Positions 6,374-63,207 of a stretch of 64,000 nt of DNA are shown here, piece after piece. Each line of letters starts with the position of its first letter. The first letter of the stretch is position 1. The translations under genes and the position numbers were made by a program. Under the pieces are notes generated by a model. It saw nothing but the letters and a program-made list of their open reading frames with translations, searched no databases and was not told the origin of the DNA. The DNA is from an uncultured Candidatus Saccharibacteria bacterium. Its GTDB lineage: Bacteria > Patescibacteriota > Saccharimonadia > Saccharimonadales > JALRHH01. The stretch lies in NCBI GenBank assembly GCA_964559915.1, contig CAZLJP010000004.1:16336-80335 (forward strand), read 5' to 3'.

Positions 6374-6389
6374 ATTGCTTATGGATATC

Positions 6390-7682: not shown

Positions 7683-7699
7683 TTGCCCACCCTACTCTT

Positions 7700-9133: not shown

Positions 9134-9378
9134 CTTACCTACTAGTGTAACTGTTTATGCTTGTTTTTGAAAGAAGTGGGACAGGGCTTACTACCAAATT
9201 AAAAAGCCCTACCTTTTGGGTAGAGCTTCTTAATTTGGTGAACCTTGAACCCTCGGTTTTTAACCCACTTGTGGCGGAGATAGTTCGTTGGAATGAGGTT
9301 ATACGCAATATCAGCGTAAAGGCTGAACTGTTAAAGGCTTGTTAGGACTTAGTTGTTATACTCCTGCAGGGAGTAGAA

Positions 9379-9825
9379 CTATCTTAGTTCCGAGATGCGA
9401 TTGTTAATGGCTTTCCTTACCTCTTGTATCCAGTCTGCAAACTCATCCCAACCATTTTGGCGTGCAGTGTATTCATCTTGGTCCAGCCAGTCATTGGCAA
9501 GTACATCTAAGTAATCAACACCCTCATTAAAGCCCGCATCCCAATATATGGTATATTTATCGAACTCGAATTGAGCCTTATTTTGCTCGGTAACTAACCT
9601 ACTTCCACTATAAAGCCATTCTTCCTGGTTCTTCTGCCACTCATTAGATAAACGAATTGCCTTTTGAATCTCAGGAATGTTGTCAAAATCAGTCTCCATA
9701 CCAAGATGACCTTCAAGACTTATCGGATCTTTTATGTCTTTTGGGGATACTACCTTGAATGCTGCCTCAAAGGCATCCACTACATCCTGTCGTACTACTA
9801 TGTCAGGTGTCGTTTCGTAAGTCAT
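9379..9825 (-). CDS. hypothetical acidic cytoplasmic protein
   Basis: 148-aa ORF with no TM and no recognisable motif. A hairpin (TACTCCCTGCAGGAGTA) follows the stop. Confidence 0.45.
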   Translation of the reverse strand: MTYETTPDIVVRQDVVDAFEAAFKVVSPKDIKDPISLEGHLGMETDFDNIPEIQKAIRLSNEWQKNQEEWLYSGSRLVTEQNKAQFEFDKYTIYWDAGFNEGVDYLDVLANDWLDQDEYTARQNGWDEFADWIQEVRKAINNRISELR

Positions 9826-9874
9826 GCCTAAATCATAGCACCTTATGTAGAAAATCGAACCCAGTTAACAGGTA

Positions 9875-9918
9875 CAAAAAAGCACCCTACTCCAAAACAT
9901 GGAATACGGGTGCTTTTT
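9875..9918 (-). terminator. intrinsic terminator after tRNA-Glu
   Basis: Minus strand has AAAAAGCACCC...GGGTGCTTTTTTGT (GCACCC/GGGTGC stem plus T tract). Confidence 0.6.
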
Positions 9919-9937
9919 CTAATCTGTAATTCTCTTC

Positions 9938-10012
9938 TGGTGATCTCGAGGGGAATCGAACCCCTGTTACCAGGATGAAAACCTGGTGTCCTAACCGTTA
10001 GACGACGAGACC
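9938..10012 (-). tRNA. tRNA-Glu (anticodon TTC), CCA encoded
   Basis: Hand-folded cloverleaf: GGTCTCG/CGAGATC acceptor, anticodon arm CCAGG-TTTTCAT-CCTGG, T-arm AGGGG-TTCGATT-CCCCT, then ACCA. Confidence 0.9.
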
Positions 10013-12018: not shown

Positions 12019-13083
12019 CTACCAGCCGTCGGGCTTGGAGGGTTCGTTGTCCTTTTCGGTTTCATCGTCAGAGTGAGACTCGTCAGATTCACCTTCAGCT
12101 TCAGCACCGTCGTTGCCGGAGTTGCCGTGGTCGGAATCGTCGGAACGATCCTTCTTCGGCGGCTCAGACTTCTCGGCGTCCTTGGTCGGCTCCTGCTTGT
12201 GACTGCTGACCTTGTCGTGAGTGGGGATATCGCTACCTCCACCACTGCTGGTGCTGTCGTGTTGATCTTGCTTCTTCACACAGCGACCGTCGTAGCCAAC
12301 GTGCTCGTCGGACTTGCAGTCATGACCACCGCCACCACAGTTGTGGGTGCACTTGTGGTCACGATCATGATGCTTCTTTTCCCACACCTTGTAGGGGATG
12401 GGCAGTCTGTACTGCGGATTGGCGCAAGCACCACGCAGTGCAAACAAAGAAGTCACCTCGCCACGTTCCACCTGAGCCGGCGGGACAAAGATCAGCGCGA
12501 TGCTGCTCTTGTTGTCCACCTTCTCGCGATCAGCCCGCTGAGGTCCGTTGTAGTAGTAGGTGTTACCCTCCCACACGACGGATTCATTGAACTGAACCGC
12601 AACCCAGTTGTCCTCGTCGAGGAGCTGTGTCTTGGTGGTCTTCGCGTCGTCCTCGCTGGTCTGCTGGATGGCAGCCTTCAGGGCGGCGCGAGCCTGCGGT
12701 GTGTCACTGTCGAGGAACTCAACAGCGTCGGCGGGAGTACGAATCTCTTCGCCATACACACCAGTGCCGGGGTCGTTGGTGTTGTCCACAAACTCATCGA
12801 ACGTGAGGTCCGATTCGTTGTGTCCAACCTGCTCGAGCCCCTGCTTGGCGACGTCCACGACGACCTTGTGCTTTGCAGCAGTGGCAGCCGTGTTGACATC
12901 GGCTTTGGCCGTGTCTTCGTAGCTGGCATCGTTCAAGAAGGCACCCAAACCCATGAGGGCAAGAGCCAGAACGATGATGCCAACGATGATTACCGTCGGG
13001 CGCCAACGAGGTGAAGAAAGCCGAGCGCGGATGCGCTGGCCTCGAGTCATGACGACGGTGTCGTCATTGTTGTTGGTACTCAT
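12019..13083 (-). CDS. hypothetical single-pass membrane protein with Cys/His cluster and acidic tail, high-GC gene
   Basis: 354-aa ORF. N-terminal TM (VIIVGIIVLALALMGLGAF). HHDRDHKCTHNCGGGGHDCKSDEH cluster. G/C-ending codons dominate, and long ORFs appear in several frames, as expected for high GC. Confidence 0.6.
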   Translation of the reverse strand: MSTNNNDDTVVMTRGQRIRARLSSPRWRPTVIIVGIIVLALALMGLGAFLNDASYEDTAKADVNTAATAAKHKVVVDVAKQGLEQVGHNESDLTFDEFVDNTNDPGTGVYGEEIRTPADAVEFLDSDTPQARAALKAAIQQTSEDDAKTTKTQLLDEDNWVAVQFNESVVWEGNTYYYNGPQRADREKVDNKSSIALIFVPPAQVERGEVTSLFALRGACANPQYRLPIPYKVWEKKHHDRDHKCTHNCGGGGHDCKSDEHVGYDGRCVKKQDQHDSTSSGGGSDIPTHDKVSSHKQEPTKDAEKSEPPKKDRSDDSDHGNSGNDGAEAEGESDESHSDDETEKDNEPSKPDGW

Positions 13084-38968: not shown

Positions 38969-40489
38969 ATGCCTACAACAAATGAGAAAATCGGACACCT
39001 TATTTACCAAGTAAGACAAGAGCGCAGCATGACGCAAGCGGAGTTTGCTCGCAAACTGGGGACCAGCCAGTCAGCCATTAATCGTATCGAGCATGGCAAA
39101 CAAAACCTGAGCTTGGAGACGCTTGGCCGTATCAGTGATGTGCTTAAAAAGCCGCTTATTAGCTTGGGTAGCAGCGCTGTGAACCTCCGTATCGAAGGTG
39201 GTCACGAGCTCAGCGGCAGCATCCAGACCAATGTTTCTAAGAATGCTGCTGTGTGTTTGTTATTTGCAGCCTTGCTTAATAAAGGTACGACTCGCCTAAA
39301 GCATATGCCCCGTATCGAAGAGGTCTATCGTATTATCGAAGTTCTGACCAGTATTGGCGTTAGCGTCAAGTGGCTGCCAGGCAACGACCTAGAAATCAAA
39401 CCTCCTGCAATAATTGACATGTCCAAAATGGATAAGACCGCTGCTCGCAAAACTCGTAGTGTCATCATGATGCTTGGCCCGCTTATGCACATCTTTAAAG
39501 AGTTTAAGATTCCGTATGCCGGTGGCTGTAAATTAGGCACACGCACCGTGCAGCCGCATCTGTTTGCACTGGAAGAGTTTGGTGTTGATATTGTGGCAAA
39601 AACCGGCCACTACCATGTTATTGTCCAGAAAAAATTACCCGAAGAAGTGGTGCTATACGAATCTGGCGATACCACCACAGAAAACGTCATCATGGCTGCC
39701 GCAAAGTTTGACGGCGAAGTCACAATCAAAATGGCCAGCGCCAATTACATGGTTCAGGACCTCTGTTTCTTCCTCAAGAAACTGGGAGTCAAGATTGAAG
39801 GCATCGGCACCAGCACTTTGCGTGTCCGCGGTGTCAAAGAAATCAAGAAGAACGTTACCTACTATCCCGGCGAAGACCCCATTGAGTCTATGACATTTGT
39901 GGCCGCAGCTGTTGCTACGAATTCCAAGCTCACCATCACCCGCTCTCCGATTGAGTTTTTGGAGCTGGAGCTACTAAAGCTCAAGAAAATGGGGCTCCGT
40001 ATTGATGTGTCAGAAAAATATAAAGCCAATAACGGACAGACCGATTTAGCAGACATCACCGTTCACAAGCACGATGGTGGTTTGCGGGCACTCGAAGAAA
40101 AGATTTATGCCCGTCCGTTCCCTGGTCTAAATATTGATAACTTGCCGTACTTTGTACCGGTAGCTGCCGTTGCCAAGGGGCGCACACTCATTCATGACTG
40201 GGTCTACGAAGAGCGAGCCCTCTATTACACAGAGATGCGCAAGCTCGGTGTTAACGTAACGCTCGCCGACCCACACCGTGCTTATATAGACGGACCAACC
40301 AAATGGAGCGCGGCTGATATTGTCTGTCCGCCCGCTTTGCGACCCGCCGTACTGCTACTCATTGGTATGCTTGCTGCCGACGGCGTATCAATCTTGCGTA
40401 ACATTTACTCTATCAATCGTGGGTATGAGGATTTGGCCGAGCGCTTAAATAGCATCGGTGCTCAAATCAGTCTTGTTCACGAGCTATAG
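38969..40489 (+). CDS. murA: XRE-type HTH domain fused to UDP-N-acetylglucosamine 1-carboxyvinyltransferase
   Basis: Residues 1-65 form a Cro/C1 HTH (MTQAEFARKLGTSQSAINRIEHGKQNLSLETL). The rest is full-length MurA (VSKNAAV, active-site loop YAGGCKLGTRTVQPH, RGYEDL) in one uninterrupted frame. Confidence 0.85.
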   Translation: MPTTNEKIGHLIYQVRQERSMTQAEFARKLGTSQSAINRIEHGKQNLSLETLGRISDVLKKPLISLGSSAVNLRIEGGHELSGSIQTNVSKNAAVCLLFAALLNKGTTRLKHMPRIEEVYRIIEVLTSIGVSVKWLPGNDLEIKPPAIIDMSKMDKTAARKTRSVIMMLGPLMHIFKEFKIPYAGGCKLGTRTVQPHLFALEEFGVDIVAKTGHYHVIVQKKLPEEVVLYESGDTTTENVIMAAAKFDGEVTIKMASANYMVQDLCFFLKKLGVKIEGIGTSTLRVRGVKEIKKNVTYYPGEDPIESMTFVAAAVATNSKLTITRSPIEFLELELLKLKKMGLRIDVSEKYKANNGQTDLADITVHKHDGGLRALEEKIYARPFPGLNIDNLPYFVPVAAVAKGRTLIHDWVYEERALYYTEMRKLGVNVTLADPHRAYIDGPTKWSAADIVCPPALRPAVLLLIGMLAADGVSILRNIYSINRGYEDLAERLNSIGAQISLVHEL

Positions 40490-40490
40490 A

Positions 40491-40604
40491 CTAACCCAAT
40501 AGCTCTTCTAGGCGCAGCTGATAACCCGTTCTGAGATAGATAATGTAGCCAACGGCTACTGCCAATAGCAGTATTAAAATAGCTGTCCGGTGCCACTCTT
40601 TCAT
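40491..40604 (-). CDS. 37-aa single-TM small protein, translationally coupled to sortase
   Basis: Hand translation gives MKEWHRTAILILLLAVAVGYIIYLRTGYQLRLEELLG. Its ATG overlaps the sortase TGA (CTATGAAA). Too short for the ORF track. Confidence 0.45.
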   Translation of the reverse strand: MKEWHRTAILILLLAVAVGYIIYLRTGYQLRLEELLG

Positions 40605-41188
40605 AGTTTTGGCTCCATTAATTCGGCAGTTATGACTAGACGATCCTTGGCCGACCACAGTGGCGTACAGGTATAGATTGTAAGTATTGAGTTGGTGGTT
40701 GGGGCTATCAAACTTGAGTCCGTTGGTGATACTACATGAACTCCAGTTACTACATAATCGTATCGCTTACCTTCCCAAAACAGCGTAATAGCATCGCCCT
40801 TCGACACTTTATCCAAATAGTAAAAAACTGCTTTGCCACTGTAGGTAAAACGATGCCCAGCGATAATAGTGTTACCACCCCTATCTGGCGTGCTATTCTT
40901 TGGCAGGTGCCATACGCCTTTGTTGAGTGTTTGTACATCAGGCCCATCATAGACCGCTTGCTTCATTTCAAGTTTTGGAATCAAGAGAGTGTTCTGTGTG
41001 GGTGTTGGCTCACTAGTAGCCACGACAGTCTCTGGTCTGCGTGACACTACAGGTGCTTCGTGTCGCACCCACCACGTCAGGCTAGGTAAAAATGGCCAAG
41101 TAAAAATATACAGCGCTAGAAAAATAACAAGTAAACCTAGGCCAGTATTAAAGTGACGCAACGTTATGTGACGCTTCATAATATACAT
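40601..41188 (-). CDS. sortase (membrane-anchored cysteine transpeptidase)
   Basis: N-terminal TM, catalytic His (IIAGHRF), TLxTC-type motif LTIYTCTP, and Arg (KDRLVITA). Confidence 0.88.
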   Translation of the reverse strand: MYIMKRHITLRHFNTGLGLLVIFLALYIFTWPFLPSLTWWVRHEAPVVSRRPETVVATSEPTPTQNTLLIPKLEMKQAVYDGPDVQTLNKGVWHLPKNSTPDRGGNTIIAGHRFTYSGKAVFYYLDKVSKGDAITLFWEGKRYDYVVTGVHVVSPTDSSLIAPTTNSILTIYTCTPLWSAKDRLVITAELMEPKL

Positions 41189-41390
41189 TGTACAGAAATC
41201 TATAGCATACTACTTTGCAAAACATCCTTGCATACTGTGAAGTAAAGTTGGATAATGCGTAATAGAACAAATATCTACAGACAAGCGACTAGGGGGCGGA
41301 GTGAGCAAAACCTGGCGATTGCTTTGGATAAACTCTCTTACTAAAACCTAATTACTTGCCTAATATACGATTACAGTGAAGGAGGTCGTT

Positions 41391-44300
41391 ATGAGAAAGT
41401 TTAGTTTTCGTACCATCAAACAAAGACTTGGTATGAGTCTTATTGCCGTACTATTTAGTGCGACGCAAATTTTGTTTCCAGTATTAGCCAGTAGCACTGT
41501 CTATGCAGCCGGGGCCACTATAAACTCGAGTAATCATCAGGGTAAAAATACTGATGGTACCTGGACGAGTGGCAATACCACTCTCTATAAGGAAGGTGAT
41601 TACGCTCACTTCCGCTTTACTCTCACGGCCAATCAAGCCGCTCAGGGCTCCATGCTTGTAGTATTCTCCAACGCAGCAAACGGCTGTGCTCAATTCTTCA
41701 CAAACTACTTTAGCATTGACTCCGTAACACCGGCTGGTACTGCAACTGTCACTCCAGCGGGTGCCCCAGTTAGCGTAGCGGGTGGTGGGGGTTCTTCTGA
41801 TTGGCAGCAGCAGCTTAACCTTAACTTCAGCGCCGGCGGTAATGTAACAGTCGAGTATGTTCTACAATTCTCGTTCACTGCTGGCGACTGTAATGGCTCA
41901 AGCACCCACAGTGCTCTTGCTGCAGCCCAGAACGCTGGTGACTACAAGAATACCGGAGCACAAACAATTCCTCTGCCCGGGTCTGGTATTCTGTACGCTC
42001 CAAGCATAACAATCAACAAGACTGTTAGCGGCGGAAGTGCAGTTCCTAGTGACTTTAGCTTTACCGTTTCACCTGCTATTGGCGGGCAAACCGTCTTCCA
42101 TATCCCCAGTGGGCAAACATCCGTAACCATCCCGAACATTAATCCAGATGGCGTCTTTACTATTACCGAAAGTGGTCCAGCTGGCTACACAATGATAAGT
42201 GGTAGCGGTACAAACTGTGTTGTTACCTCGCTCGCAGATGGCAAGATGACAGCCACCGTGACCGCTGGTCGACCTGCAGTAGATGCCATTTGTAACTTTG
42301 GCAATCAGCAACAAACGGGTAGCATCAAAGTCATTAAAGATGTTGTGAATGACAATGGCGGCAACAAAACGTACGCTGACTTCACATTCACCCTTAATGG
42401 CACCACTTATAACTTCGACGCTACCACGTCACCTGATGGAGCAAAAACCGTTACTCTACCAGTCGGTGGACCCTACAGTGTAGTCGAGCCAGAGGCCGAC
42501 ACTATGGGATATGCAACAGGCTACAACAACTGCGCGAACCTGGTAGTAGTGGCCGGACAAACCCAAACGTGTACCATTACCAATAATGACGTTGCACCAT
42601 CATTAACTTTGAATAAGATTGTTAACAATGCTTTTGGTGGCGACAATCCTGAGAGTGACTGGACGCTTACAGCTAACGGTGGAAATGCCGGTGTACTATC
42701 TGGCCCAGGCGCCAATACAAACACAGATGTTGTCAGTGGCGCTGGCTTCAAAGCTGGCACCTATGCCCTCAGTGAAAATGGCCCATCAGGCTACAGCGCC
42801 AGCAGCTGGACATGTACTGGTACCGGTACACAGAATGGCAGCAATATTACGCTTGCTGCTGGTCAATCTGCTGTATGTACCATCACGAACACTGCACAGC
42901 AGCCAACACTCACTATTGTCAAAAATGTCACCAATGCCTTCGGTGGCACACTAGTTGCAAGTGATTTTGGACTAAAGGTCAATAATACTAGTCTCAGCTT
43001 TATAGCTGGTGCTCCGGGTACAACTACCGCCTACACCGCCACACCTAGTGTCAATGCCAACACCTCCTATACACTCAGTGAAATTGATGTTGCCGGATAT
43101 TCAGAGGGCAACTGGAACTGTACAGGCGGCACCTCTGGAGTGTTTAGCGGCACCAGTGTCACCCTTGACGAGGGAGAAAACGTCACCTGTACTATTACCA
43201 ACAGTGACATAGCGCCAATTATCAATATCATAAAGCTAGCGCTTAACCCTTATGGTACCGCACTCTTACCTGATGCCTTTAGCCTAACGCTCGACGGCCA
43301 ACCAGTATCTAGTGGCGTAAACAATCCTGTTACTGCTGGGTTACACATTGTTGGAGAAACGCAGCAACCTGGCTACCAGTTTACTAGCTTTGCTGGCCAG
43401 AACTGTACAGTCGATCAGCAAGGTACCTGGACGGCCTTAGGTGTCATTGGGCAGACAACCACTTGTACCATTACCAACACCGCAATCCAACCAAAGTTGA
43501 TTATCAAAAAGCACGTTGTTAACGACAACGGCGGTGGCAAGTCAGCTGGCGACTTCAATATGACCGTTAGTGGGAACGCTGTTAGTGACACGAACTTCCC
43601 AGGCGAAGAAGCTGGTACGACGGTCTATCTCAGCGAAGGCACCTACAGTGTTGACGAACTTACCGACGGTGCATACGCAAAGACGCTCAGTGAAGACTGT
43701 AGTGGCACAATCAAGATTGGCGAGACCAAGACCTGTACAATCACGAATGATGACAAGCCAGGTACACTAATCGTTAACAAGGCTGTCAAGGGCGGCGACA
43801 GCGAAGCCGAAGACTTTAGTTTCAAGATTGATGGTAGTGACACAGATTATAGCTTTGTAAACGGCCAGACAACTACTGAGGGTAGCGCACCCGTCGAGCT
43901 TAACGCTGGTACATATTCTGTCACAGAGAACGACGCCTACGGCTACGACAAAGACGACAGTGACTGTAAGAACGTTCAGGTCAAGAATGGCGATGAAGCC
44001 AGCTGTACCATCACCAATACTGCACAGCGTAAGATTACTATCTGTCACGCCACTGCCGCAGTAAAGAACCCGTATGTAACCCTATCTGTACCCATCTCAG
44101 CCGTTGACGGCACTGCTGGCAACCAAGCAGGTAAAGGTGATCATTACGGCGAACACCAGGGTCCAATCTTCGACCCCGCAGTCAACCACAACGGTGACAA
44201 CTGGGGAGATATCATCCCACCGGTGCCGCCATACCACAATGGCCTTAACTGGGACGAGGACGGCCAAGCAGCCTACGAAAATGACTGTGTTCCTCCTGCT

Positions 44301-45293
44301 AAAGTAATTGTTACCAAGTACAACGACCTCAACCGTAACGACGTACAAGATCAGGATGAACCCACCCTACCCGACTGGGAGTTCAACCTAACCGACGGTC
44401 AGTGTGACCAAGAGTTCAATATCGAGGCGTTCCTATCAAAAGCCCTCAATGAGGCAACTTGTTACGACAAAACTCAGACCACCGGCCAAGACGGCACAAC
44501 TACTTTCAAAGGTGTCGTACTAGACAACACCTACCAGTTGTCAGAAAATATCCCCGCAGATAGTAACTGGCATCTCGGTAATATCAGCTGTGATGGCGAC
44601 CAAGCAGGTCTTGATGGTAACATCTTCTACCTCGACGACATCCAGCCTGGTGTTACTATCGACTGTACTGTTGGCAACTACCGTGACGCCGTACTCAATA
44701 TTGCTAAGTCAAATAATCGTCCTAACCCAACTACCGTAGGCGACACTGTCACCTACACTCTTACCGTAACTGTCCCAGAAGACAGTGGCATGGTGTTCGA
44801 TACTGAAGTAACCGATCTGCCACCAGAAGGTTTCGAGTATGTAACCGGCAGCTGGACAGCAGATTCAAGTGTACGTGGTGACATCAAGGGCGAACTGACT
44901 CCTGAGCCAACCTACGGTTCTCCGGGTATCTGGCTACTCCGAAACCTTGTCCCAGGAGAGATTGTCACTCTCACCTACAAGGCATTAATCAAATCAAGCG
45001 TTAGTGATGGCAAATACCCAGATATCGCATTTGCGCGCGGTTGTAGCACAAACCTCGGCTGTGTACCTCAGGGTAGTGGCAATGTCATCTTTGCCAATAT
45101 CAGCACTGGTAGCAATACGCCATTTGTCGGCACTACCGTTGCCATAACCTCACCTGCGGTCATACCTGCCAATATTATCCACTACGTTAATACTGGCGCA
45201 TCAAATGTATGGCTCAACACGATTGCAGCAATTACTCTTGCGGGAGCAGCCCTGATGACACTTGTTCGCCGTGAGCAGAAAGGAACAAAGTAA
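41391..45293 (+). CDS. giant modular surface adhesin-like protein with C-terminal YVNTGA sorting signal
   Basis: AAGGAGG RBS before the ATG at 41391. Signal peptide (VLASSTVYA|AG). Seven roughly 90-104-aa modules ending in CTITN. SdrD-B/DUF11-like distal domains. C-terminus is YVNTGASNVWLNTIAAITLAGAALMTLVRREQKGTK. Confidence 0.85.
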   Translation: MRKFSFRTIKQRLGMSLIAVLFSATQILFPVLASSTVYAAGATINSSNHQGKNTDGTWTSGNTTLYKEGDYAHFRFTLTANQAAQGSMLVVFSNAANGCAQFFTNYFSIDSVTPAGTATVTPAGAPVSVAGGGGSSDWQQQLNLNFSAGGNVTVEYVLQFSFTAGDCNGSSTHSALAAAQNAGDYKNTGAQTIPLPGSGILYAPSITINKTVSGGSAVPSDFSFTVSPAIGGQTVFHIPSGQTSVTIPNINPDGVFTITESGPAGYTMISGSGTNCVVTSLADGKMTATVTAGRPAVDAICNFGNQQQTGSIKVIKDVVNDNGGNKTYADFTFTLNGTTYNFDATTSPDGAKTVTLPVGGPYSVVEPEADTMGYATGYNNCANLVVVAGQTQTCTITNNDVAPSLTLNKIVNNAFGGDNPESDWTLTANGGNAGVLSGPGANTNTDVVSGAGFKAGTYALSENGPSGYSASSWTCTGTGTQNGSNITLAAGQSAVCTITNTAQQPTLTIVKNVTNAFGGTLVASDFGLKVNNTSLSFIAGAPGTTTAYTATPSVNANTSYTLSEIDVAGYSEGNWNCTGGTSGVFSGTSVTLDEGENVTCTITNSDIAPIINIIKLALNPYGTALLPDAFSLTLDGQPVSSGVNNPVTAGLHIVGETQQPGYQFTSFAGQNCTVDQQGTWTALGVIGQTTTCTITNTAIQPKLIIKKHVVNDNGGGKSAGDFNMTVSGNAVSDTNFPGEEAGTTVYLSEGTYSVDELTDGAYAKTLSEDCSGTIKIGETKTCTITNDDKPGTLIVNKAVKGGDSEAEDFSFKIDGSDTDYSFVNGQTTTEGSAPVELNAGTYSVTENDAYGYDKDDSDCKNVQVKNGDEASCTITNTAQRKITICHATAAVKNPYVTLSVPISAVDGTAGNQAGKGDHYGEHQGPIFDPAVNHNGDNWGDIIPPVPPYHNGLNWDEDGQAAYENDCVPPAKVIVTKYNDLNRNDVQDQDEPTLPDWEFNLTDGQCDQEFNIEAFLSKALNEATCYDKTQTTGQDGTTTFKGVVLDNTYQLSENIPADSNWHLGNISCDGDQAGLDGNIFYLDDIQPGVTIDCTVGNYRDAVLNIAKSNNRPNPTTVGDTVTYTLTVTVPEDSGMVFDTEVTDLPPEGFEYVTGSWTADSSVRGDIKGELTPEPTYGSPGIWLLRNLVPGEIVTLTYKALIKSSVSDGKYPDIAFARGCSTNLGCVPQGSGNVIFANISTGSNTPFVGTTVAITSPAVIPANIIHYVNTGASNVWLNTIAAITLAGAALMTLVRREQKGTK
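41990..44020 (+). repeat. tandem intragenic domain repeats (7 modules, period about 270-312 nt)
   Basis: The Cys-x-I/F-T/G-N module ends recur at about 42291, 42571, 42876, 43188, 43464, 43734 and 44004. Each is followed by a [IL]x[IV]xK...NxxGG start. Confidence 0.7.
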
Positions 45294-45964
45294 TGAAAAA
45301 GCTTTTAATTGCACTGACACTAACTGTTGTCCTTAGCCTTGGCTTGTCAGCACAGACATTGGCAGCCAGTCGCTATTGGGACGTACAAATCATGACTCCT
45401 GCTGCATCTAGTACTAACCATACGCTAAATGTCGCGTATAACGTCCTCTCAACGATTGAGGACGACATCTACGACGTCAGCTTATACCAAAATGAGATAC
45501 TCATTGGCTCACAGCACGTCGACCATCCACCTAAGGGCGGTGATTCAGGAGCATTCAACATTACGATGCCTGCTAATGGTACATACAAGTACCAGATTTC
45601 TGCCAACAACACGAGTGCTGGTGAAATAAAAATGACTGACGCTAAAACAGTTACTATTGTTAATGGCCCAAGTCCAACTGTTACGACTGTTACTACTGCT
45701 AGTGCAACTGGCAGCACTACCGGCACCGGCGCTAACGCGAGTCAGACGAATGGCATAGCAACTGCCGCCAATGGCACAAACAACGGGCAAGTTACCGATA
45801 ATGCAGCCAGCACCGAGAAAAAGGACGGTCAATCACTTGGCGCAAGCACCACCAAAGCAAGCGCATCACACAACAACAAAAAGTGGTACGCACTTGGTGC
45901 TGGGACTATCGTTCTCCTTGTGGCCGCCTACTACTGGGTTCGTCGTCGCAGCGAACAAGAATAA
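45293..45964 (+). CDS. secreted, C-terminally membrane-anchored Thr/Ala-rich protein
   Basis: TAATG junction with the adhesin gene. Signal peptide (LSAQTLA|AS). C-terminal TM plus RRRSEQE. No sorting motif. Confidence 0.6.
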   Translation: MKKLLIALTLTVVLSLGLSAQTLAASRYWDVQIMTPAASSTNHTLNVAYNVLSTIEDDIYDVSLYQNEILIGSQHVDHPPKGGDSGAFNITMPANGTYKYQISANNTSAGEIKMTDAKTVTIVNGPSPTVTTVTTASATGSTTGTGANASQTNGIATAANGTNNGQVTDNAASTEKKDGQSLGASTTKASASHNNKKWYALGAGTIVLLVAAYYWVRRRSEQE

Positions 45965-46192: not shown

Positions 46193-46270
46193 TGGGGCGA
46201 ACGATGGGGATTGAACCCACGACCTCCGGAACCACAACCCGGCGCTCTAACCAACTGAGCTACATTCGCC
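46193..46270 (-). tRNA. tRNA-His (anticodon GTG) with encoded G-1 and CCA
   Basis: G-1 plus GCGAATG acceptor, anticodon arm CCGGG-TTGTGGT-TCCGG, T-arm GTGGG-TTCAATC-CCCAT, C73, CCA. Confidence 0.88.
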
Positions 46271-46325
46271 ATAGCTTTAAATAACAGAGGTAATTTTACT
46301 GCATTCGAGCAAAAATAACAATAAC

Positions 46326-46853
46326 TTATATCTGTTGGTAGTATTCTGATGATAGTAGTGCGTCTACTGCATCTGGTATATCTGATTTAGCCGGAACGCC
46401 AGACAGAATTTGAGCTTTTACTTCTTGTGGGTTAATCCAGCTAGCAGAAACAAAATCTTCTGGGTTAAACTGTGGTGTTTCATTGCTTCGATATGCGTAT
46501 AACATAGTGTAGTAACGAACATCGTCACGCCTGAACTTCTTGATAGAAACTAAGTCGGCAGGGCTAATTGTAATATTAATTTCTTCTTCGGCTTCTCGTA
46601 CAGCTGCGTCTAGATAATCTTCACCTGAATCAACGTGACCACCTACACTGAAGTCTAAACCGTTAGGCGCGATTGTCTTATCTGCCGTACGTTTAGGTAT
46701 CCAGAGTTGGCCTTGGTCGTTGATGATAAGTATGTTGGAGGCACGGATATATCCCAGTTTATCTGCTATTAATTTGCCGTAGTCTGCACGCAAAATAGTA
46801 CCGATTACGGCATCATTCTCGTCTGTCAAATCTAATAATTCTTCTTGGTGCAT
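46326..46853 (-). CDS. NUDIX hydrolase
   Basis: Nudix box GGHVDSGEDYLDAAVREAEEEINI. The start codon lies 9 nt after the tRNA-Arg(TCT) 3' end. Confidence 0.8.
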   Translation of the reverse strand: MHQEELLDLTDENDAVIGTILRADYGKLIADKLGYIRASNILIINDQGQLWIPKRTADKTIAPNGLDFSVGGHVDSGEDYLDAAVREAEEEINITISPADLVSIKKFRRDDVRYYTMLYAYRSNETPQFNPEDFVSASWINPQEVKAQILSGVPAKSDIPDAVDALLSSEYYQQI

Positions 46854-46862
46854 ACGTTTTCT

Positions 46863-46939
46863 TGGTGCCCCCGGAATGATTCGAACATTCGACCTTAGGC
46901 TTAGAAGTCCTCTGCTCTGTCCAGCTGAGCTACGGGGGC
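46863..46939 (-). tRNA. tRNA-Arg (anticodon TCT), CCA encoded, atypical anticodon stem
   Basis: Perfect acceptor GCCCCCG/CGGGGGC, D-arm, and T-arm GAATG-TTCGAAT-CATTC. The anticodon arm GAGGA-CTTCTAA-GCCTA has only 3 Watson-Crick pairs. Confidence 0.72.
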
Positions 46940-47106
46940 ATTGGTGCGGGTGCGGAGAATATAGATATAATCTTGCGGCGTGCTCGGTGCAAGCACCTGT
47001 GCGCGTCCTCGATTATCGAACTCTCGCTCGCTTTGGCTCGCTGACCGAGTTCAATCTCAGTCAATCAAACCAATTTCTAACTCTTTGCAAGCAAAGAATC
47101 AGAAAT
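46940..47106 (-). repeat. tRNA-Gly-associated 3'-end-duplication module (core 46964-47025)
   Basis: 21 nt (ATTGGTGCGGGTGCGGAGAAT) at 46940-46960 equals 47105-47125. The core is related to the Arg and Pro modules. The copy abuts the 5' end of tRNA-Arg(TCT). Confidence 0.75.
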
Positions 47107-47181
47107 TGGTGCGGGTGCGGAGAATCGAACTCCGATCTCGAGTTTGGAAAACTCATATACTAGCCGTTGTACTACACCCGC
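47107..47181 (-). tRNA. tRNA-Gly (anticodon TCC), CCA encoded
   Basis: GCGGGTG/CACCCGC acceptor, anticodon arm TGAGT-TTTCCAA-ACTCG, T-arm CGGAG-TTCGATT-CTCCG, then ACCA. Confidence 0.9.
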
Positions 47182-57031: not shown

Positions 57032-58843
57032 ATGCGTATCTCTGACGCTCTGGTGGAAAAACTCTTGGTGGGGGCTAAAAAAGTAGGCGCCGATCAGTTG
57101 ACGACGCTCAAAGAAGCCAAAAAAGCCGACAAGAAGCCTTTACAAGACCTGGTCATTGCCGAAAACCTAGTGACCGAAAAAGACCTGACTCAGCTCTATG
57201 CTAAAGAAATTGATATCCCGTATGTAGAGCTGAACCCCAAGGAAATCAAGCGTGAAGTACTCAAGCTCGTACCTGAGCGCATCGCCCGGCAATATGGTGT
57301 AGTGCTGTTTGGCATCGACAAGGACGAGACCAGCCTACTGGCTATGGAAGACCCCGACGACGTCTTGGCACTGAACTTTTTGCAAAAGCATCTTGGCAAC
57401 AAAATTAAAGTTCATATTGCGCCGGCCAGTGTCATTCAGGCAGCGCTGGACCAGTACCGTGGCAACATCAGCGGCGAGATTACTGAAGTTATTACCACCG
57501 AGGCGGAAGACGATACAGTCGACGAAGAGGTAAGCGAAGAGGATGTTGCCGAAGATTCGCCAGTCGCCCAGACAGTGAATCTGCTCATTGAGTACGCGAT
57601 TCGCAGCGGTGCCAGTGATATTCATATTGAGCCACGTGATGGTTATGTGTCGGTACGCTACCGTATTGACGGTATTTTGCGTGAGGCGAACAAGCTGCCC
57701 AAGAAGGTTCACAATGCCCTGATATCTCGTATTAAAATCTTGTCTAATCTCAAGATTGACGAACGACGCGTGCCGCAAGATGGCCGTTTTAAAATCCAAA
57801 TTGGCAGTGGCCTGTACGCACTCCGTGTTTCGACCCTCCCTATTACCGAGGGCGAAAAATGTGTGATGCGTATCCTCAACGAGTCCGGCAAAGCTACGTC
57901 GCTCGAAGACCTTGGCTATTGGGGCCGCTCATTAGAGTCTGTGAATGACTCTATTCGTCAGCCACACGGCATGGTGCTGGTGACGGGACCGACTGGCTCT
58001 GGTAAATCGACTAGTTTGTTTAGTGTATTGAGTATCCTTAATAAACCAAGTGTTAATATCTCTACCGTTGAAGACCCTGTGGAGTACAAAATCCCGGGCG
58101 CTAATCAGACCCAGGTTAACCCCAAGGCAGGCATGACCTTTGCTGCTGGTCTGCGTGCCCTACTACGCCAAGACCCCAACATCATCATGGTGGGTGAGAT
58201 TCGCGATACCGAAACCGCTGACCTTGCTGTGCAGGCTGCCCTGACGGGACACTTGGTATTTGCCACGTTGCACACCAACAACGCCGCAACGTGTCTGCCA
58301 CGTTTACTAGACATGGGTATTGAACCGTTCTTAATCGCCAGCACTGTGCGAGCCGTGGTCGGTCAGCGTTTGGTGCGAAAATTATGTCTCGACTGCCGTG
58401 AAGAAGTGGTTCCTGATGCCACGAGCCTCAAACAAATTGCCCAAATTTATCACACCGATGATGCCGCCGCGATGCGGCGTATCAATGAACTAGAGAAAGC
58501 AGCGCTTGAGGGTGGTATTGGCAAGACAAATACCGGCAAAGCAAAGGTTGATACCACCAAACTTTCCACCACAGAGTCTAAGATTACTCGCATATTCAAG
58601 GCTCATGATGATGGCTGTGACAGCTGTGGGCACTCAGGCTACCGTGGCCGTATGGGTATCTACGAAGTGTTAGGCAACTCTAGTGATGTCCAGAAACTGA
58701 TTGTGGGCAACAGCACTAGTGACGTTATCCAAAACCAAGCAATGAAAGAAGGCATGGTCACTATGCAGCTGGATGGGTTTATAAAGGCACTGCGTGGCCA
58801 AACAACTATTGAAGAAATCCTAAGAGTCACGGCTGAGAAGTAA
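57032..58843 (+). CDS. pilB: type IV pilus assembly ATPase PilB (GspE family)
   Basis: N-terminal MshEN-type domain, Walker A GPTGSGKST, Asp and His boxes, and a tetracysteine motif (CLDC...CDSCGHSGYRGR). Confidence 0.92.
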   Translation: MRISDALVEKLLVGAKKVGADQLTTLKEAKKADKKPLQDLVIAENLVTEKDLTQLYAKEIDIPYVELNPKEIKREVLKLVPERIARQYGVVLFGIDKDETSLLAMEDPDDVLALNFLQKHLGNKIKVHIAPASVIQAALDQYRGNISGEITEVITTEAEDDTVDEEVSEEDVAEDSPVAQTVNLLIEYAIRSGASDIHIEPRDGYVSVRYRIDGILREANKLPKKVHNALISRIKILSNLKIDERRVPQDGRFKIQIGSGLYALRVSTLPITEGEKCVMRILNESGKATSLEDLGYWGRSLESVNDSIRQPHGMVLVTGPTGSGKSTSLFSVLSILNKPSVNISTVEDPVEYKIPGANQTQVNPKAGMTFAAGLRALLRQDPNIIMVGEIRDTETADLAVQAALTGHLVFATLHTNNAATCLPRLLDMGIEPFLIASTVRAVVGQRLVRKLCLDCREEVVPDATSLKQIAQIYHTDDAAAMRRINELEKAALEGGIGKTNTGKAKVDTTKLSTTESKITRIFKAHDDGCDSCGHSGYRGRMGIYEVLGNSSDVQKLIVGNSTSDVIQNQAMKEGMVTMQLDGFIKALRGQTTIEEILRVTAEK

Positions 58844-60060
58844 TGAAATTTACCTACACTGCCGTTGATAAATCAGGCAAGCGCGTAACCGGTGCTATTG
58901 AAGCATCGAGCGAACATGCCGCAAATGAATCACTCAAGCTACGAGATATTCGCCCGTTGGGGCTTAGGGCTGTTAGCGGCCGGGGTGCGAGCAACCCCTT
59001 CTCTGCCAAGAACCGAAAGGTCAAGAGCAAGGAGTTGATGGTATTTACACGTCAGCTCTCTACCATGATTAACGCTGGTGTACCACTTGTACGGTCGCTC
59101 AACACCTTGCAGTTACAAACCGAAAATCCTTCATTCAAAACTACTATTGCTAGCATCGGCAAAGATGTTGAAGGTGGTATGTCGTTTGCCGACGCCCTGG
59201 ACAAGCAGCCCAAGGTCTTCACGACTATTTACGTCAACATGGTGCGAGCTGGTGAAGCTGGCGGTATCCTAGACGAGATTTTACTAAAACTCGCCATACA
59301 GCAAGAGAAGGACGCGCACATCCGTGCCAAATTCAAGGGCGCCATGACGTATCCGATTATTCTGTTGTCGATTACCTTCTTGGTGTTCATCGCACTGATG
59401 GTGTTTGTGATGCCCAAACTGGGCAAAATTATTAAAGAGTTAGCGGGGCCCAATACGGAGCTGCCGCCATTGACACAGGCACTACTAGGCATCAGCCACT
59501 TCATGACCTCCAATGCTATCCTTCTGCTGGTTGGCGGCTTTGTGGGCACATATTTCTTGCGACGCTACATCAAGACCCCTCCAGGGCGACGTAAAAAAGA
59601 CGAATTGATGATGAAAATACCAATCATTAACGAGATTATCAAAAAAGTAGCCATTGCCCGCTTTGCACGCATCTTCGCCAGTCTCATGGGGGCTGGCGTT
59701 AATGTAGTGGATTCGCTGACGATTACTTCCAAAGCAATCGGTAATGCCGTAATCGAAGACGAGCTGATAGCGGCGAGCAAGGCTGTGGTTAATGGCCAGC
59801 AATTATCTGTGCCACTGTCGGAAAGCAAGGTCTTACCGCCAATTGTGAGCCAAATGCTGGCCATCGGCGAAGAAACTGGCCAGACTGACGAAATTCTGCT
59901 CAAAGTAGCTGACTTCTATGAAGAAGAGGTTGATACGGTAGTGGAAAGTCTCAGTTCTATCCTGGAACCAATCATGATTGTAGTGATGGGCGCCATGGTG
60001 GGATTAATCGCAGCTAGTGTGATTGGCCCAATCAGTAAATTGTCGACGCAAATTCAGTAG
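58843..60060 (+). CDS. pilC: type IV pilus platform protein PilC (GspF family)
   Basis: Duplicated GspF domains and 3 TM segments. ATGA-type junction with pilB. Confidence 0.9.
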   Translation: MKFTYTAVDKSGKRVTGAIEASSEHAANESLKLRDIRPLGLRAVSGRGASNPFSAKNRKVKSKELMVFTRQLSTMINAGVPLVRSLNTLQLQTENPSFKTTIASIGKDVEGGMSFADALDKQPKVFTTIYVNMVRAGEAGGILDEILLKLAIQQEKDAHIRAKFKGAMTYPIILLSITFLVFIALMVFVMPKLGKIIKELAGPNTELPPLTQALLGISHFMTSNAILLLVGGFVGTYFLRRYIKTPPGRRKKDELMMKIPIINEIIKKVAIARFARIFASLMGAGVNVVDSLTITSKAIGNAVIEDELIAASKAVVNGQQLSVPLSESKVLPPIVSQMLAIGEETGQTDEILLKVADFYEEEVDTVVESLSSILEPIMIVVMGAMVGLIAASVIGPISKLSTQIQ

Positions 60061-60179
60061 TTCACCTGTGTAAAACTGCTTGCATATCATCATGCTTATG
60101 CTAGTGTATAAACATACGCATCGCAGTATTATCCGCGGGCGGTCTATAAGTAAATACGTAATATAAGGGTGGGCATTAT

Positions 60180-60665
60180 ATGTTCAAAACAATTAAAAAA
60201 GCACAAAAAGGCTTCACGATTATCGAGCTTCTAATCGTAATCGCTATCATCGCAATCTTGGCATTGCTTGTTATTAACAACATTGTTGGCGCAAATGCTA
60301 AGGCACGTGACACGCAACGTCTTACAGACCTGAAGTCAATCGCGACTAAGCTTGAAGAAGCCTACAACGACAACGGCAGCTACCCAAGTACGTTCAACAA
60401 CACTACCTTGGCAGGACTGGACGAACAGGCTTTGCTTGATCCAAACGGTGGTAACTCAATCACTATCAACACTGGCGTAGCTGATGCTACTGCTGCTGAC
60501 GGTGTGGCAGCTCCAACCAGCGACCCTGGTAACGGTTCGTCATACATCTACATTCCATTCAACTGTAATGGTACTGCATGTACTGGCTTCCGCTTGAAGA
60601 CATTCATCGAGAAACCAAACACAACTATTCAGAACCCTCACGTTATCAAGAGCCTGAATAACTAG
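60180..60665 (+). CDS. pilA: type IV major pilin
   Basis: Class III signal KKAQKGFTIIELLIVIAIIAILA (G|FTxxE) and a C-terminal Cys pair (CNGTAC). Confidence 0.88.
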   Translation: MFKTIKKAQKGFTIIELLIVIAIIAILALLVINNIVGANAKARDTQRLTDLKSIATKLEEAYNDNGSYPSTFNNTTLAGLDEQALLDPNGGNSITINTGVADATAADGVAAPTSDPGNGSSYIYIPFNCNGTACTGFRLKTFIEKPNTTIQNPHVIKSLNN

Positions 60666-60687
60666 TAGCAATCGCTACACAATAAAA

Positions 60688-60713
60688 ACGCCCCTTCCAC
60701 AGGGGTGTTTTTA
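60688..60713 (+). terminator. intrinsic terminator after pilA
   Basis: ACGCCCCT-TCCAC-AGGGGTGTTTTTAT. Confidence 0.75.
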
Positions 60714-60756
60714 TATTGCTTATGGTATACTCTGAGTAAGAATACGCGGAGAAACA

Positions 60757-61152
60757 GTGGTACTAAAATCACAAAACGGCTTCACTATAATTGAGCTTTT
60801 GATAGCCATTTCGGTGGTTGGAATTCTAGTGCCCACACTTGGTGGTCTAATCACCACTATGAACGGTCTCAACGACCGCGCTCGTGATATGTCACTGATT
60901 AATTCACTGGCAGAGAACAAAGTCGAAAGCCTGCGTAGCCAGGGGTTCGCAGCAGTTAGTAATGGTACGTATGATTTTAGTAGCGAGCTTCCAGCCACCA
61001 TTACGGGCCCAAAATCAGCTAACTATGTAGTCACCACTCCAAACACCGGCATGCGCCGTGTTGAATTGACGTTCACCTACAGAGATAAAGGTGCGCAGCA
61101 TACCTACAAATACTATACCTACGTCGGAGAAGTCGGTGTTGGGCAATATTAA
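60757..61152 (+). CDS. minor pilin / pseudopilin
   Basis: GTG start. Prepilin motif QNGFTIIELLIAISVVGIL. Confidence 0.8.
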   Translation: MVLKSQNGFTIIELLIAISVVGILVPTLGGLITTMNGLNDRARDMSLINSLAENKVESLRSQGFAAVSNGTYDFSSELPATITGPKSANYVVTTPNTGMRRVELTFTYRDKGAQHTYKYYTYVGEVGVGQY

Positions 61153-61831
61153 GCAAAAAGTATCACTCGCCAGGCAGCAGGCTGGCTTTACAGTCACCGA
61201 GCTGACCATTGCTATAGCTATAGCTAGCATGCTGATACTCAGCTTTGTGACGGTTAGCTTGTACATGTACGGCGATACCGTCAGGTCGACACTGTATGCA
61301 CAGCTGGCAACCGAATCTCAAAATATCCTGCGCTCTGTGGTAGAGGAACTGCGACAGAGCTCGTCAATCCGTTCAAGTAACGCAAACCCCGACCCCAATG
61401 CACCTGGCGGCACCTGGTCAACCAGCAACAGTAGTCTTATCCTCATTATTTCTACGCCGGCTCTAGATGGCAGCAATAACTTTATTATGAATAGTGATAC
61501 GGGTTACCCATACCAGAATGAGATTGTCTACTTTGTGTCTGGTAATACGCTGTATAAACGAACACTTGTTGATACAAACGCCGCCGGCAATGCCGAAAAA
61601 CGATCGTGTCCAATATCCTTACAAACAGCTTCGTGCCCGGCAGACATCGTAATGAGTCGTAACTTCAGCGATATGAATTTTGTGTTTTATGACCAGGACG
61701 ATGCTATCACTACCAATATTCCCAATGCCCGGTCAATTAAGCTGATATTGCAGATGCAACGGCAATCATTTGGCAAAACCCTCCATTTTGACAATACTAT
61801 TCGTATAACCATAAGGAACACCTCGTCATGA
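61136..61831 (+). CDS. minor pilin / pseudopilin
   Basis: Prepilin motif QQAGFTVTELTIAIAIASMLIL. The probable GTG start at 61136 overlaps the preceding gene. The track ORF begins at 61091. Confidence 0.75.
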   Translation: MLGNIKQKVSLARQQAGFTVTELTIAIAIASMLILSFVTVSLYMYGDTVRSTLYAQLATESQNILRSVVEELRQSSSIRSSNANPDPNAPGGTWSTSNSSLILIISTPALDGSNNFIMNSDTGYPYQNEIVYFVSGNTLYKRTLVDTNAAGNAEKRSCPISLQTASCPADIVMSRNFSDMNFVFYDQDDAITTNIPNARSIKLILQMQRQSFGKTLHFDNTIRITIRNTSS

Positions 61832-63207
61832 AGCGACAATCTCAAGACGGCTATATTCTCTTATCAATACTTGTAACTACTTCGTTCATCATGCTTATTG
61901 GCGTCATATCTTTGCAGTTGATTAGCGCTAATTTAAAGTCAGCCAAGAAAGAACGCTATACAGTAAATGCGCAGTTTGCCGCAGATGCCGGCCTTGATGA
62001 CGCTGTACGCCAGCTGAACATTGACGGTGATTGGGCGGGCAGTGGCAGCGAGGTGACACTGGCAACCAGCACAGATTTTAAGACGACGTATCAAACTACT
62101 GTAGTAGACGGCAGTACTGATTTTCAGAAGTTTATTAATGTCACTGCCAGGACATATAGCCCGGCATCGTCCAGTACTGTTGCCTCAACCAGAAAATACC
62201 AAGTAGAAATGAGAGGTGTTGGCAGTGGATCATACTCCATCGTTGGTGGTGTGGGCGGTTTAATACTCAAGAACAACGCCAAGATTGTGAACGGCAAAGT
62301 ATTCGTGAACGGCAACATCACCCTACAAAACAACAGTCAGATTGGCTTAGATTTGCTCGGCATACCAATTACACCCGTAGACGTACAAGCTGCCCATCAA
62401 TCATGTCCCGTGGCTGGTGGAGCAACCTATCCCCGTCTGTGCGTGGCAGCCGATAATGCTGGCCAGCCAATTTCAATAAGCACTAATGGGCGCATTTATG
62501 GCCAAGTTACGGCAAATGACCAAACTGACGGCAGTCGTATGTCAGCCCCAGGGTTGGTAGCTGGCGATGTATCACCGAGCCCTTTGCCAGAACATGACCG
62601 AGAGGCTCAGAAAGCAGCTATTACCAACAATATGACAGGGGCAGCTGCTGGCTGTACATTGCTAGGTGCAAAAACGTGGCCAGCGAATACCAAAATTACA
62701 GGCGATGTCACCATATCGGGTGTCTGCATCATAACCATAGAAGGTGATATATGGATTACTGGCAATCTGACTATTAGTAATACCGCAATCATTGTAGTAA
62801 AGTCGGGTCTTTCAACTCGACCACAAATTATGGTTGATGGGGCCAGTGGCGTAACGATACGCAACGGTGCAGCACTCAATGCCAACCTGGGTGGTACAGG
62901 ATTACGATTTATCACCTATGCCAGTGCCGCAGCGTGCTCGCCTGATTGCATAAACGTTACTGGTAACGATTTGTTCAATAGCAGAAACACTACAACCATC
63001 AGCCTAGAAAACAGTGCATCGGCCGGATCAACAGAATTTTACGCCAAATGGTCAAAAGTAAGCATATCTAATAACGGTAACATTGGTGCCCTTGCCGGCC
63101 AGACAGTTGAGCTGAGCAATTCCTCTGCGATAACGTTTGGTGCTAGTGTAAGTGGTTTTAGCGGTCCAATAGCCTGGGTAGTGAAGTCGTATAAACGCAC
63201 GTTTTAG
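61828..63207 (+). CDS. PilX-N-like large pilus-associated protein with beta-helix-like repeats
   Basis: N-terminus QDGYILLSILVTTSFIMLIGVISLQL, then repeated ITGDVTISG / ITGNLTISN / VTIRNG beta-strand motifs. ATGA overlap with the preceding pilin gene. Confidence 0.65.
   Translation: MKRQSQDGYILLSILVTTSFIMLIGVISLQLISANLKSAKKERYTVNAQFAADAGLDDAVRQLNIDGDWAGSGSEVTLATSTDFKTTYQTTVVDGSTDFQKFINVTARTYSPASSSTVASTRKYQVEMRGVGSGSYSIVGGVGGLILKNNAKIVNGKVFVNGNITLQNNSQIGLDLLGIPITPVDVQAAHQSCPVAGGATYPRLCVAADNAGQPISISTNGRIYGQVTANDQTDGSRMSAPGLVAGDVSPSPLPEHDREAQKAAITNNMTGAAAGCTLLGAKTWPANTKITGDVTISGVCIITIEGDIWITGNLTISNTAIIVVKSGLSTRPQIMVDGASGVTIRNGAALNANLGGTGLRFITYASAAACSPDCINVTGNDLFNSRNTTTISLENSASAGSTEFYAKWSKVSISNNGNIGALAGQTVELSNSSAITFGASVSGFSGPIAWVVKSYKRTF

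Follow-up and report, generated by a model that had tools for sequence, protein, structure and literature searches.

What is the 1300-residue secreted protein that is encoded beside a sortase gene in an uncultured Candidatus Saccharibacteria bacterium, and how would it be held at the cell surface with a C-terminus that bears YVNTGA in place of an LPxTG signal? The protein, called the fibre below, is the product of the longest open reading frame (ORF; positions 41391-45293, + strand) within the window, by which we mean the whole 64,000-nucleotide stretch analysed here (assembly GCA_964559915.1, contig CAZLJP010000004.1, positions 16,336 to 80,335). Saccharibacteria live attached to other bacteria, and genetic tools exist for some of them; to our knowledge, little has been established, type IV pili aside, about the molecules with which they choose and hold their hosts. 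We consider the fibre to be probably a wall-anchored fibrillar adhesin, formed by a tip on an eight-domain stalk and fixed by the sortase through a L[V/A]xTG-type signal. It belongs to a known kind, the sortase-anchored fibrillar proteins with a CnaB-type stalk. Judging from the sequences, the novelty lies in the surrounding system, which combines an unclassed, class-wide sortase clade and its L[V/A]xTG signal with a microprotein universally coupled to the sortase and a partner protein that is likewise conserved.

The fibre gene opens with an ATG located 5 nt downstream of a ribosome-binding site (GAAGGAGG, 41378-41385); an alternative GTG start is present at 41376. This site belongs to the divergent intergenic region (41189-41390) separating the fibre gene from the sortase gene (40601-41188, - strand), and the stop codon of the fibre gene (TAA, 45291-45293) shares one base with the ATG of the next gene (45293-45964), forming a TAATG junction. 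The coordinates agree with the geometry claimed in the preliminary description (a divergent sortase gene and TAATG coupling to the second gene), the gap being 202 bp and the overlap a single base. Scans for promoters and for terminators between 40300 and 46400 gave sites at chance level in both cases.

The fibre starts with a signal peptide, read by eye (amino acids (aa) 1-39, ending in VYA; 41391-41507, +), in which a basic stretch (MRKFSFRTIKQR) precedes a hydrophobic core and the boundary between VYA and AG, resembling a Sec signal. It is followed by an N-terminal tip domain (aa 43-202; 41517-41996, +), an all-beta sandwich in the AlphaFold2 model with the Cys pair C99/C167; seven tandem SpaA_2 (prealbumin/CnaB-like) modules (aa 203-876; 41997-44018, +; PF19403, E 8.6e-56); a Cys/His domain (aa 877-967; 44019-44291, +) without a Pfam match, extending from C885 to C966 and including ICH..NPY, DHYGEH, WGDIIPP and GLNW; an eighth, longer stalk module (aa 968-1097; 44292-44681, +; VIVTK...YQLSEN...CTVGN); a DUF11 domain and a last beta-rich segment (aa 1098-1264; 44682-45182, +; PF01345, TIGR01451); and the sorting signal (45183-45293, +), composed of YVNTG (45183-45197), a membrane segment (45198-45266), RREQKGTK (45267-45290) and the stop codon. 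Much of this layout had been described previously, and the signal peptide, the seven modules of 90-104 aa with their closing motifs and [IL]x[IV]xK openings, the Cys/His segment ICHATAAVKNPY...GDHYGEHQGP (aa 884-925) and the tail (YVNTG at aa 1265-1269, a 23-aa uncharged segment and RREQKGTK) were all recovered on the translation. The count of seven tandem modules was right as far as it went, and the eighth, ending in CTVGN (aa 1092-1096), has to be added to it. Among the domain labels, DUF11 is retained (PF01345, 27.7 bits vs a cut-off of 24.6, E 3.6e-6; TIGR01451, 25.9 bits vs 24, E 7.1e-6), the modules are confirmed by Pfam as being of the SpaA type, and SdrD-B is not supported (PF17210, 7.3 bits in the fibre vs a cut-off of 29.7, E 7.4).

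Modules 1 to 7 of the stalk are 103, 93, 102, 104, 92, 90 and 90 aa long and end in CNFGN (aa 301-305) and then in six copies of CTITN (aa 394, 496, 600, 692, 782 and 872); SpaA_2 matches them in six stretches (187 bits vs a gathering score of 25) overlapped by SpaA_4 and DUF7601 matches, and the eighth module is matched only weakly, by SpaA_4 (E 2.8e-4) and by SpaA (E 1.2e-3). The alignment of the seven modules reveals four invariant residues: a Lys in the first strand, the Glu of Yx[VL]xE...GY, a Cys and the final Asn; a second Cys is found 13-25 residues earlier. We take Yx[VL]xE...GY to be the canonical CnaB motif present in SpaA and in the CnaB2 domain of FbaB. In domains of the CnaB type, the Lys/Glu/Asn triad forms an internal Lys-Asn isopeptide bond (SpaA; FbaB CnaB2, with Asp). 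The fibre contains one such triad in every module, as was looked for following the preliminary description: K210/E260/N305, K316/E366/N398, K409/E462/N500 and K511/E564/N604 in modules 1 to 4; K615/E656/N696, K707/E756/N786 and K797/E846/N876 in modules 5 to 7; and K976/E1052/N1096 in the eighth. These residues (Lys 96%, Glu 99%, Cys 98% and Asn 98% conserved) are the most conserved positions of the stalk domain among 1438 modules of 120 homologues. In the fibre, an internal Lys-Asn isopeptide bond, with Glu as the catalyst, and a disulfide probably lock each module. The fibre modules resemble the CnaB/SpaA isopeptide domains (PF17802, PF19403) that form stalks in pilins and adhesins of Gram-positive bacteria, sharing the Lys, the Glu of Yx[VL]xE...GY and the terminal Asn, and differ from them in having an extra conserved Cys pair and in belonging to a protein that would not be a pilin. 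No solved structural relative of the modules was detectable by sequence. All the near orthologues have 7+1 modules, and the more distant homologues have 8-12; no tandem repeats were found at the DNA level under the modules, making a slipped-strand change of module number unlikely.

The tip (aa 43-202) has no Pfam match. Its AlphaFold2 model, built from nine sequences, is a confidently modelled sandwich with a pLDDT (predicted local distance difference test) of 82.9 and a predicted template modelling score (pTM) of 0.83. Foldseek found only weak, generic beta-sandwich matches for it in the PDB: a CLIPPER domain from a fibrillar adhesin ranked first (E 4e-4, template modelling score (TM-score) 0.45), ahead of cohesins and of the leg domains of integrins. 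The nearest relatives of the fibre are encoded on contigs of the assemblies GCA_964428995.1 and GCA_023253175.1 (the latter a Candidatus Saccharimonadia). Compared with the orthologue P0002, the fibre is 82-100% identical from the tip through module 7 and 55-69% identical in the C-terminal third; compared with P0003, the Cys/His domain is 87% identical and the tip unrelated. In P0003, P0004, P0009 and P0035, a stalk of this kind bears another N-terminal domain, which is rich in Cys (ANDEPGQKDLT...). This alternative tip occupies aa ~40-230, reads C.ND..GANDEPGQKDLT...DTDGDG... and is present in the L003 copy at 6001-9942. The mosaic identity along the orthologues suggests recombination between alleles. 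A tip-on-stalk layout, swapped tips and mosaic alleles are typical of adhesins under diversifying selection. Because the orthologues exchange the tip for unrelated domains, the tip is likely to be the ligand-binding part of the fibre. The role given to the protein in the preliminary description, that of the likely major surface fibre and a candidate host-attachment factor, is supported by tip swapping only indirectly.

No Pfam model matches the Cys/His domain, which has about 90 aa and looks like a family of extracellular domains not described so far. At E <= 1e-3, 1455 representative clusters match it (573 at E <= 1e-10); in these it stands alone or in tandem, often right after the signal peptide, mostly in sortase-tailed proteins of several lineages, and unrelated small proteins bearing it also have sorting tails of the [LY][VAIT][NDKE]TG kind described below. 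Its consensus is kvtiCHrt.s..nPYv.i.v...a.dg..gn...dh..eh.gp...wgDIIpp....h.glnw...gqai..n.c., with an invariant Cys-His and a well conserved His pair, which suggests a disulfide-closed, possibly metal-binding unit; AlphaFold2, run on a 7-sequence alignment, gave no usable model of it (pLDDT 43). The high conservation and wide distribution of the domain, together with the suggestion of metal binding, favour a wall-anchored fibre that is no host adhesin, being instead an envelope structure or spacer or capturing metal or nutrients through the Cys/His domain; in addition, the tip has no recognisable ligand-binding relative and its binding function is so far a prediction. We regard this alternative as improbable, given the tip-on-stalk layout, the unrelated replacement tips and the mosaic identity of the orthologues. 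Transposon sequencing in a cultivated Saccharibacterium, where adhesins are required for epibiotic growth, speaks against it too, although the proteins named there differ from the fibre (PMC10633639).

The attachment of the fibre to the wall would depend on its C-terminus. YVNTG has only the T and the G in common with LPxTG, and the geometry of the tail is that of the LPXTG-type signals: motif, hydrophobic segment and short basic C-terminal tail. The generic LPXTG-anchor model TIGR01167 just passes on the isolated fibre tail (16.9 bits vs a cut-off of 15.9) and was reported neither for the full protein nor for the tail of the second substrate described below. Further VNTGA tails and the conservation of VNTG in orthologues had been proposed as checks, and both gave positive results. 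The back-translated VNTGA pattern occurs in two copies on the two strands of the window (0.05 expected; 0 of 100 shuffles reached two), both in frame and about 30 residues from the C-terminus of secreted proteins. One is the fibre; the other is a 466-aa DUF11-repeat protein (10212-11612, -), a second predicted sortase substrate ending in TLVNTGA, a membrane segment and the basic ARRLS. Beside this gene is encoded a 354-aa membrane protein (12019-13083, -) without a Pfam family; one stretch of it is rich in Cys and His (HHDRDHKCTHNCGGGGHDCKSDEH), and its C-terminus is strongly acidic and Ser-rich. The fibre orthologues keep the motif (YVKTGA at 82% identity, LVNTGS at 64%, YVNTGA at 54%) with varying flanks, about 30 more distant homologues have LV[NDEK]TG, and the homologues in other candidate phyla radiation (CPR) groups (Woesebacteria, Daviesbacteria) and in actinobacteria have ELPxTG and LPxTG or LAxTG, respectively.

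The tails encoded near related sortases define the signal more broadly. The scan covered 1.3 Mb around these sortases (the best 80 genome loci) plus the window; it listed 51 tails, of which about 34 were judged genuine. All the genuine tails read [LY][VAIT][NDKE]TG, with a constant spacing between the motif and the membrane segment that follows it (LVNTG 12, LANTG 7, LADTG 3, LVKTG 3, YVNTG 2, LINTG 2, LTNTG 2), and none of them is LPxTG. The second position of the 51 listed tails is Val in 19 and Ala in 14, and the sole Pro is that of a chance match, KPDTG. On these sequences, the signal of the clade is L-[V/A]-x-T-G, with Ala as a frequent alternative to Val, and the Tyr at the first position is peculiar to the lineage of the fibre. 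The preliminary description set the signal apart from LPxTG and LAxTG alike; since Ala is common in the clade, L[V/A]xTG is the better notation, and it overlaps the LAxTG of class E sortases. Of the 48 loci with sufficient flanking sequence, 17 have the substrate gene adjacent to the sortase gene and divergent from it. A search with a profile built from 28 tails found only two matches in a set of 5.8 billion proteins.

In the literature on Saccharibacteria that mentions sortases, no sorting signal is described; a sortase is present in more than half of the CPR genomes (PMC6744442). The sole published mention of LVNTG that we found concerns Cna of Gardnerella vaginalis, an adhesin that binds fibrinogen and whose motif is termed 'non-canonical LVNTG' (PMC12095359). 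Cna is a modular adhesin with this same pentapeptide placed before a membrane segment; it differs from the fibre in its N2-N3 IgG-like domains, SdrD_B and PKD repeats, in belonging to another phylum and in that no dedicated sortase was analysed (PMC12095359).

The xVNTG motif might also go unprocessed, in which case the C-terminus would be a mere membrane anchor and the fibre a membrane-tethered protein. The partner protein of the same operon appears to use such an unprocessed anchor, and cleavage of the fibre is so far a prediction. We nevertheless consider this unlikely: in the roughly 34 genuine tails, which are otherwise unrelated, T and G are invariant and L, V and N strongly preferred at a fixed distance; the motif persists where the flanks diverge; it is linked to a sortase gene; and the generic anchor model just passes on the isolated fibre tail.

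The enzyme that would process this signal is a 195-aa sortase (40601-41188, -; PF04203, E 9.7e-30) with an N-terminal membrane anchor and the catalytic His, Cys and Arg in GHRFTY, YTCTP and DRLV, respectively; these three residues are invariant in 36 relatives. The curated models of classes A to F were run against it and none reached its cut-off. The NCBIfam models of class D (84 bits), class C (80.8 bits, cut-off 160) and class E (80.1 bits, NF033747, cut-off 160) matched it about equally, at roughly half of the cut-offs (140-165), and the same is true of all 36 clade members, among which the best class E E-value (1.9e-22) is that of the window sortase itself. One 55%-identical relative is named 'class E sortase' by NCBI. 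Nearly all of the best 80 loci of the clade belong to Candidatus Saccharibacteria, Saccharimonadales or Patescibacteria. In the profile comparison, class D (2ln7, at 75 bits) and class C (at about 72 bits) supply the solved structures closest to the sortase, and class E scores 51 bits.

Several features bring this sortase close to the class E system (SrtE1 and the A. oris SrtA): the non-proline residue at the second position of the signal, with LANTG and LADTG in the clade; a shared GHRxTY signature; and the LxKG...GN...AGHRxTY region, where LNKGVWHLPKNSTPDRGGNTIIAGHRFTY of the sortase and LKKGLGHYANTARLGQKGNFAVAGHRRTY of class E can be placed side by side without gaps (5go5, 5utt, 5uus). Other features set it apart: a score of 80 bits vs a cut-off of 160; a preference for Val over Ala; an origin in Patescibacteria, not Actinobacteria; and class E chains that span 140-144 residues in the profile alignments vs 126-129 of the query, the 14-15 extra residues being unlocated. 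The sortase may lack the beta6/beta7 loop insertion of class E. In addition, the class E Tyr proposed to read the Ala of LAxTG (GHY, in the beta3/beta4 loop, 17 residues before the catalytic His; PMC5148588) corresponds to Leu94 of the sortase (LNKGVWHL...AGHR vs LKKGLGHY...AGHR of 5go5), in a column occupied by L, R or I in the clade. The system would work like that of class E (a non-proline signal and a housekeeping use by unrelated substrates) while its sequence stays outside the class E model.

That the fibre is a pilin, polymerised head to tail by the sortase into a covalent pilus in the manner of class C, is very improbable: its SpaA-family domains and a weak match to TIGR04226 ('isopeptide-forming fimbrial protein', 22.8 bits vs a cut-off of 30) point to pilin families, its sortase is by sequence equally near to classes C, D and E and a second secreted protein follows in the operon, but there is no [YFW]PK anywhere in the 1300 aa and so no pilin motif (WxxxVxVYPK) with its linking Lys, the sortase lacks the DP[FWY] lid and is anchored at the N-terminus only (just 14 residues follow the catalytic Arg), a protein of 1300 aa with eight stalk domains is already fibre-sized, the partner protein bears no sorting motif, and the presence of the same tail on the unrelated 466-aa DUF11 protein 30 kb away suggests a housekeeping sortase.

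The sortase gene is coupled to a gene encoding a 37-aa single-pass membrane microprotein (MKEWHRTAILILLLAVAVGYIIYLRTGYQLRLEELLG; 40491-40604, -), whose ATG overlaps the TGA stop of the sortase gene (ATGA). An ORF of this kind, encoding 32-42 aa (64 aa in one case) with a hydrophobic stretch, was found at the sortase stop in all 69 loci (69/69), mostly with the same 4-nt ATGA overlap. Two types can be distinguished, MKEWHRT... and MSEKTRFW..., the consensus being MKEWHRT, a membrane segment and GFIxWL; neither Pfam nor NCBIfam has a family matching the microprotein. Wherever a sortase gene with a divergent, adjoining substrate gene was found and the microprotein recovered, the latter was of the MKEW type. 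Loci with an MSEK- or MNEK-type microprotein have no neighbouring substrate within 10 kb. A comparable arrangement exists in actinobacteria, where SafA, a protein of 52 aa encoded immediately downstream of the class E housekeeping sortase, uses an FPW motif to bind the sortase, which it protects from signal peptidase (PMC9282373). The similarity to the class E system extends to this small single-pass membrane protein encoded immediately after the sortase, and the microprotein is probably a SafA-like sortase partner, by analogy of position and topology; it differs from SafA in its length (32-42 aa vs 52) and in its motifs, since neither FPW nor PGP, which are conserved on the exoplasmic side of SafA, was found in the 69 microprotein sequences.

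The gene coupled to the fibre gene (45293-45964, +) encodes a partner protein of 223 aa, in which a signal peptide precedes a roughly 110-aa beta domain and a linker rich in Ser, Thr and Asn leads to a C-terminal membrane anchor ending in AAYYWVRRR. It has no xxxTG sorting motif, and no family model reached its cut-off against it. The partner gene is located directly after the substrate gene in the related loci L001, L003, L005, L009, L010, L017 and L033. The conserved parts of the protein are the N-terminal beta domain (W.v.i.tP...htLNV.Y.VLS) and the anchor motif (A.YYW...R). In addition, VLGA[SE]T is found 10-16 residues ahead of the anchor, and a stretch of this kind likewise comes before the sorting motif in many sortase substrates of the CPR. 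Two candidate relationships of the partner were discarded: the match to GVDTG_CTERM (15.4 bits vs 29) was dismissed for covering only the membrane part of the model, and the similarity to module 6 of the fibre (E 0.027) was too weak to indicate homology.

Putting these components together, the fibre would be exported via Sec, and its C-terminal segment and basic tail would keep it in the membrane; the divergently encoded sortase would cut YVNTG between Thr and Gly and join the fibre to peptidoglycan; and the mature protein would be a rod of eight CnaB-type domains holding the beta-sandwich tip off the cell, produced from a cassette that would also include the sortase-coupled 37-aa microprotein and the fibre-coupled, membrane-anchored 223-aa partner. 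The overall logic of signal peptide, ligand-binding head (predicted in the fibre), repeated stalk and sorting signal is shared with the staphylococcal MSCRAMM/Sdr adhesins, from which the fibre differs in having no significant SdrD_B match (E 7.4), no N2-N3 head and a signal that is not LPxTG. The Pam pili of Candidatus Mycosynbacter amalyticus are likewise filaments of a Saccharimonadia member with Ig-like folds, Cys pairs and a presumed role in host contact, but they are non-covalent donor-strand-exchange polymers of small pilins that involve chaperone-like factors and no sortase or sorting signal (bioRxiv 10.64898/2026.03.03.709456); the idea that the fibre is a Pam-pilus system was set aside, Pam being sortase-independent and no sequence relation being seen.

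Some observations weigh against a sortase-anchored adhesin. The sortase fits no characterised class, and consequently its specificity is deduced from co-occurrence only; some of the related metagenome-assembled genomes have two sortase copies, the census of substrates in this genome covers 64 kb, and a second sortase or LPxTG substrates may exist elsewhere in it. The Tyr at the first position of the fibre motif is unusual even within the sortase clade, the tip has no informative structural relative in the PDB (TM-score at most 0.48), and no experimental evidence for cleavage, anchoring or binding was found in the literature for any Saccharibacterium.

The other genes of the window, which include MurB, SHMT, a helix-turn-helix (HTH)-fused MurA and a type IV pilus cluster (PilB, PilC, pilin), are typical of TM7. 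The cassette is kept in L001 and L003 despite different outer neighbours; the outer neighbour is PheRS in L001 and MurA in L003 and in the window. This MurA (EPSP_synthase fold; 38969-40489, +) bears an N-terminal HTH_3 DNA-binding domain, and the same HTH_3-MurA fusion is present in the related genome (L003, 3628-5148). Directly downstream of the cassette there are three tRNA genes (46193-47181, -; His-GTG, Arg-TCT and Gly-TCC), and 11 kb downstream lies the type IV pilus cluster (57032-63207, +), whose products are an ATPase resembling PilB (T2SSE), a platform protein resembling PilC (T2SSF), a pilin that bears a methylation motif at its N-terminus and a family-less 459-aa protein.

A broader and more tentative proposal, to which we would not yet give even odds, is that the Saccharimonadia own a sortase class outside A to F, with L[V/A]NTG as its signal and a 32-42-aa protein as its obligatory partner, tied in a large subclade to an isopeptide- and disulfide-stabilised giant fibre whose exchangeable tip would decide the host. 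If this is true, the microprotein would be the first SafA-like factor outside Actinobacteria, and its universal coupling to the sortase would extend the SafA idea beyond that phylum. The biology of sortases gains a clade lying outside the curated class models, with a predicted signal in which Val or Ala occupies the site of Pro without the Tyr proposed for class E, and the prediction of surface proteins in CPR genomes would be improved by a L[VA]NTG rule, since searches based on LPxTG would miss such proteins. For the Saccharibacteria themselves, the cassette may provide a concrete, clade-conserved candidate for host attachment, in the form of a covalently anchored fibre that carries different tips in closely related strains.

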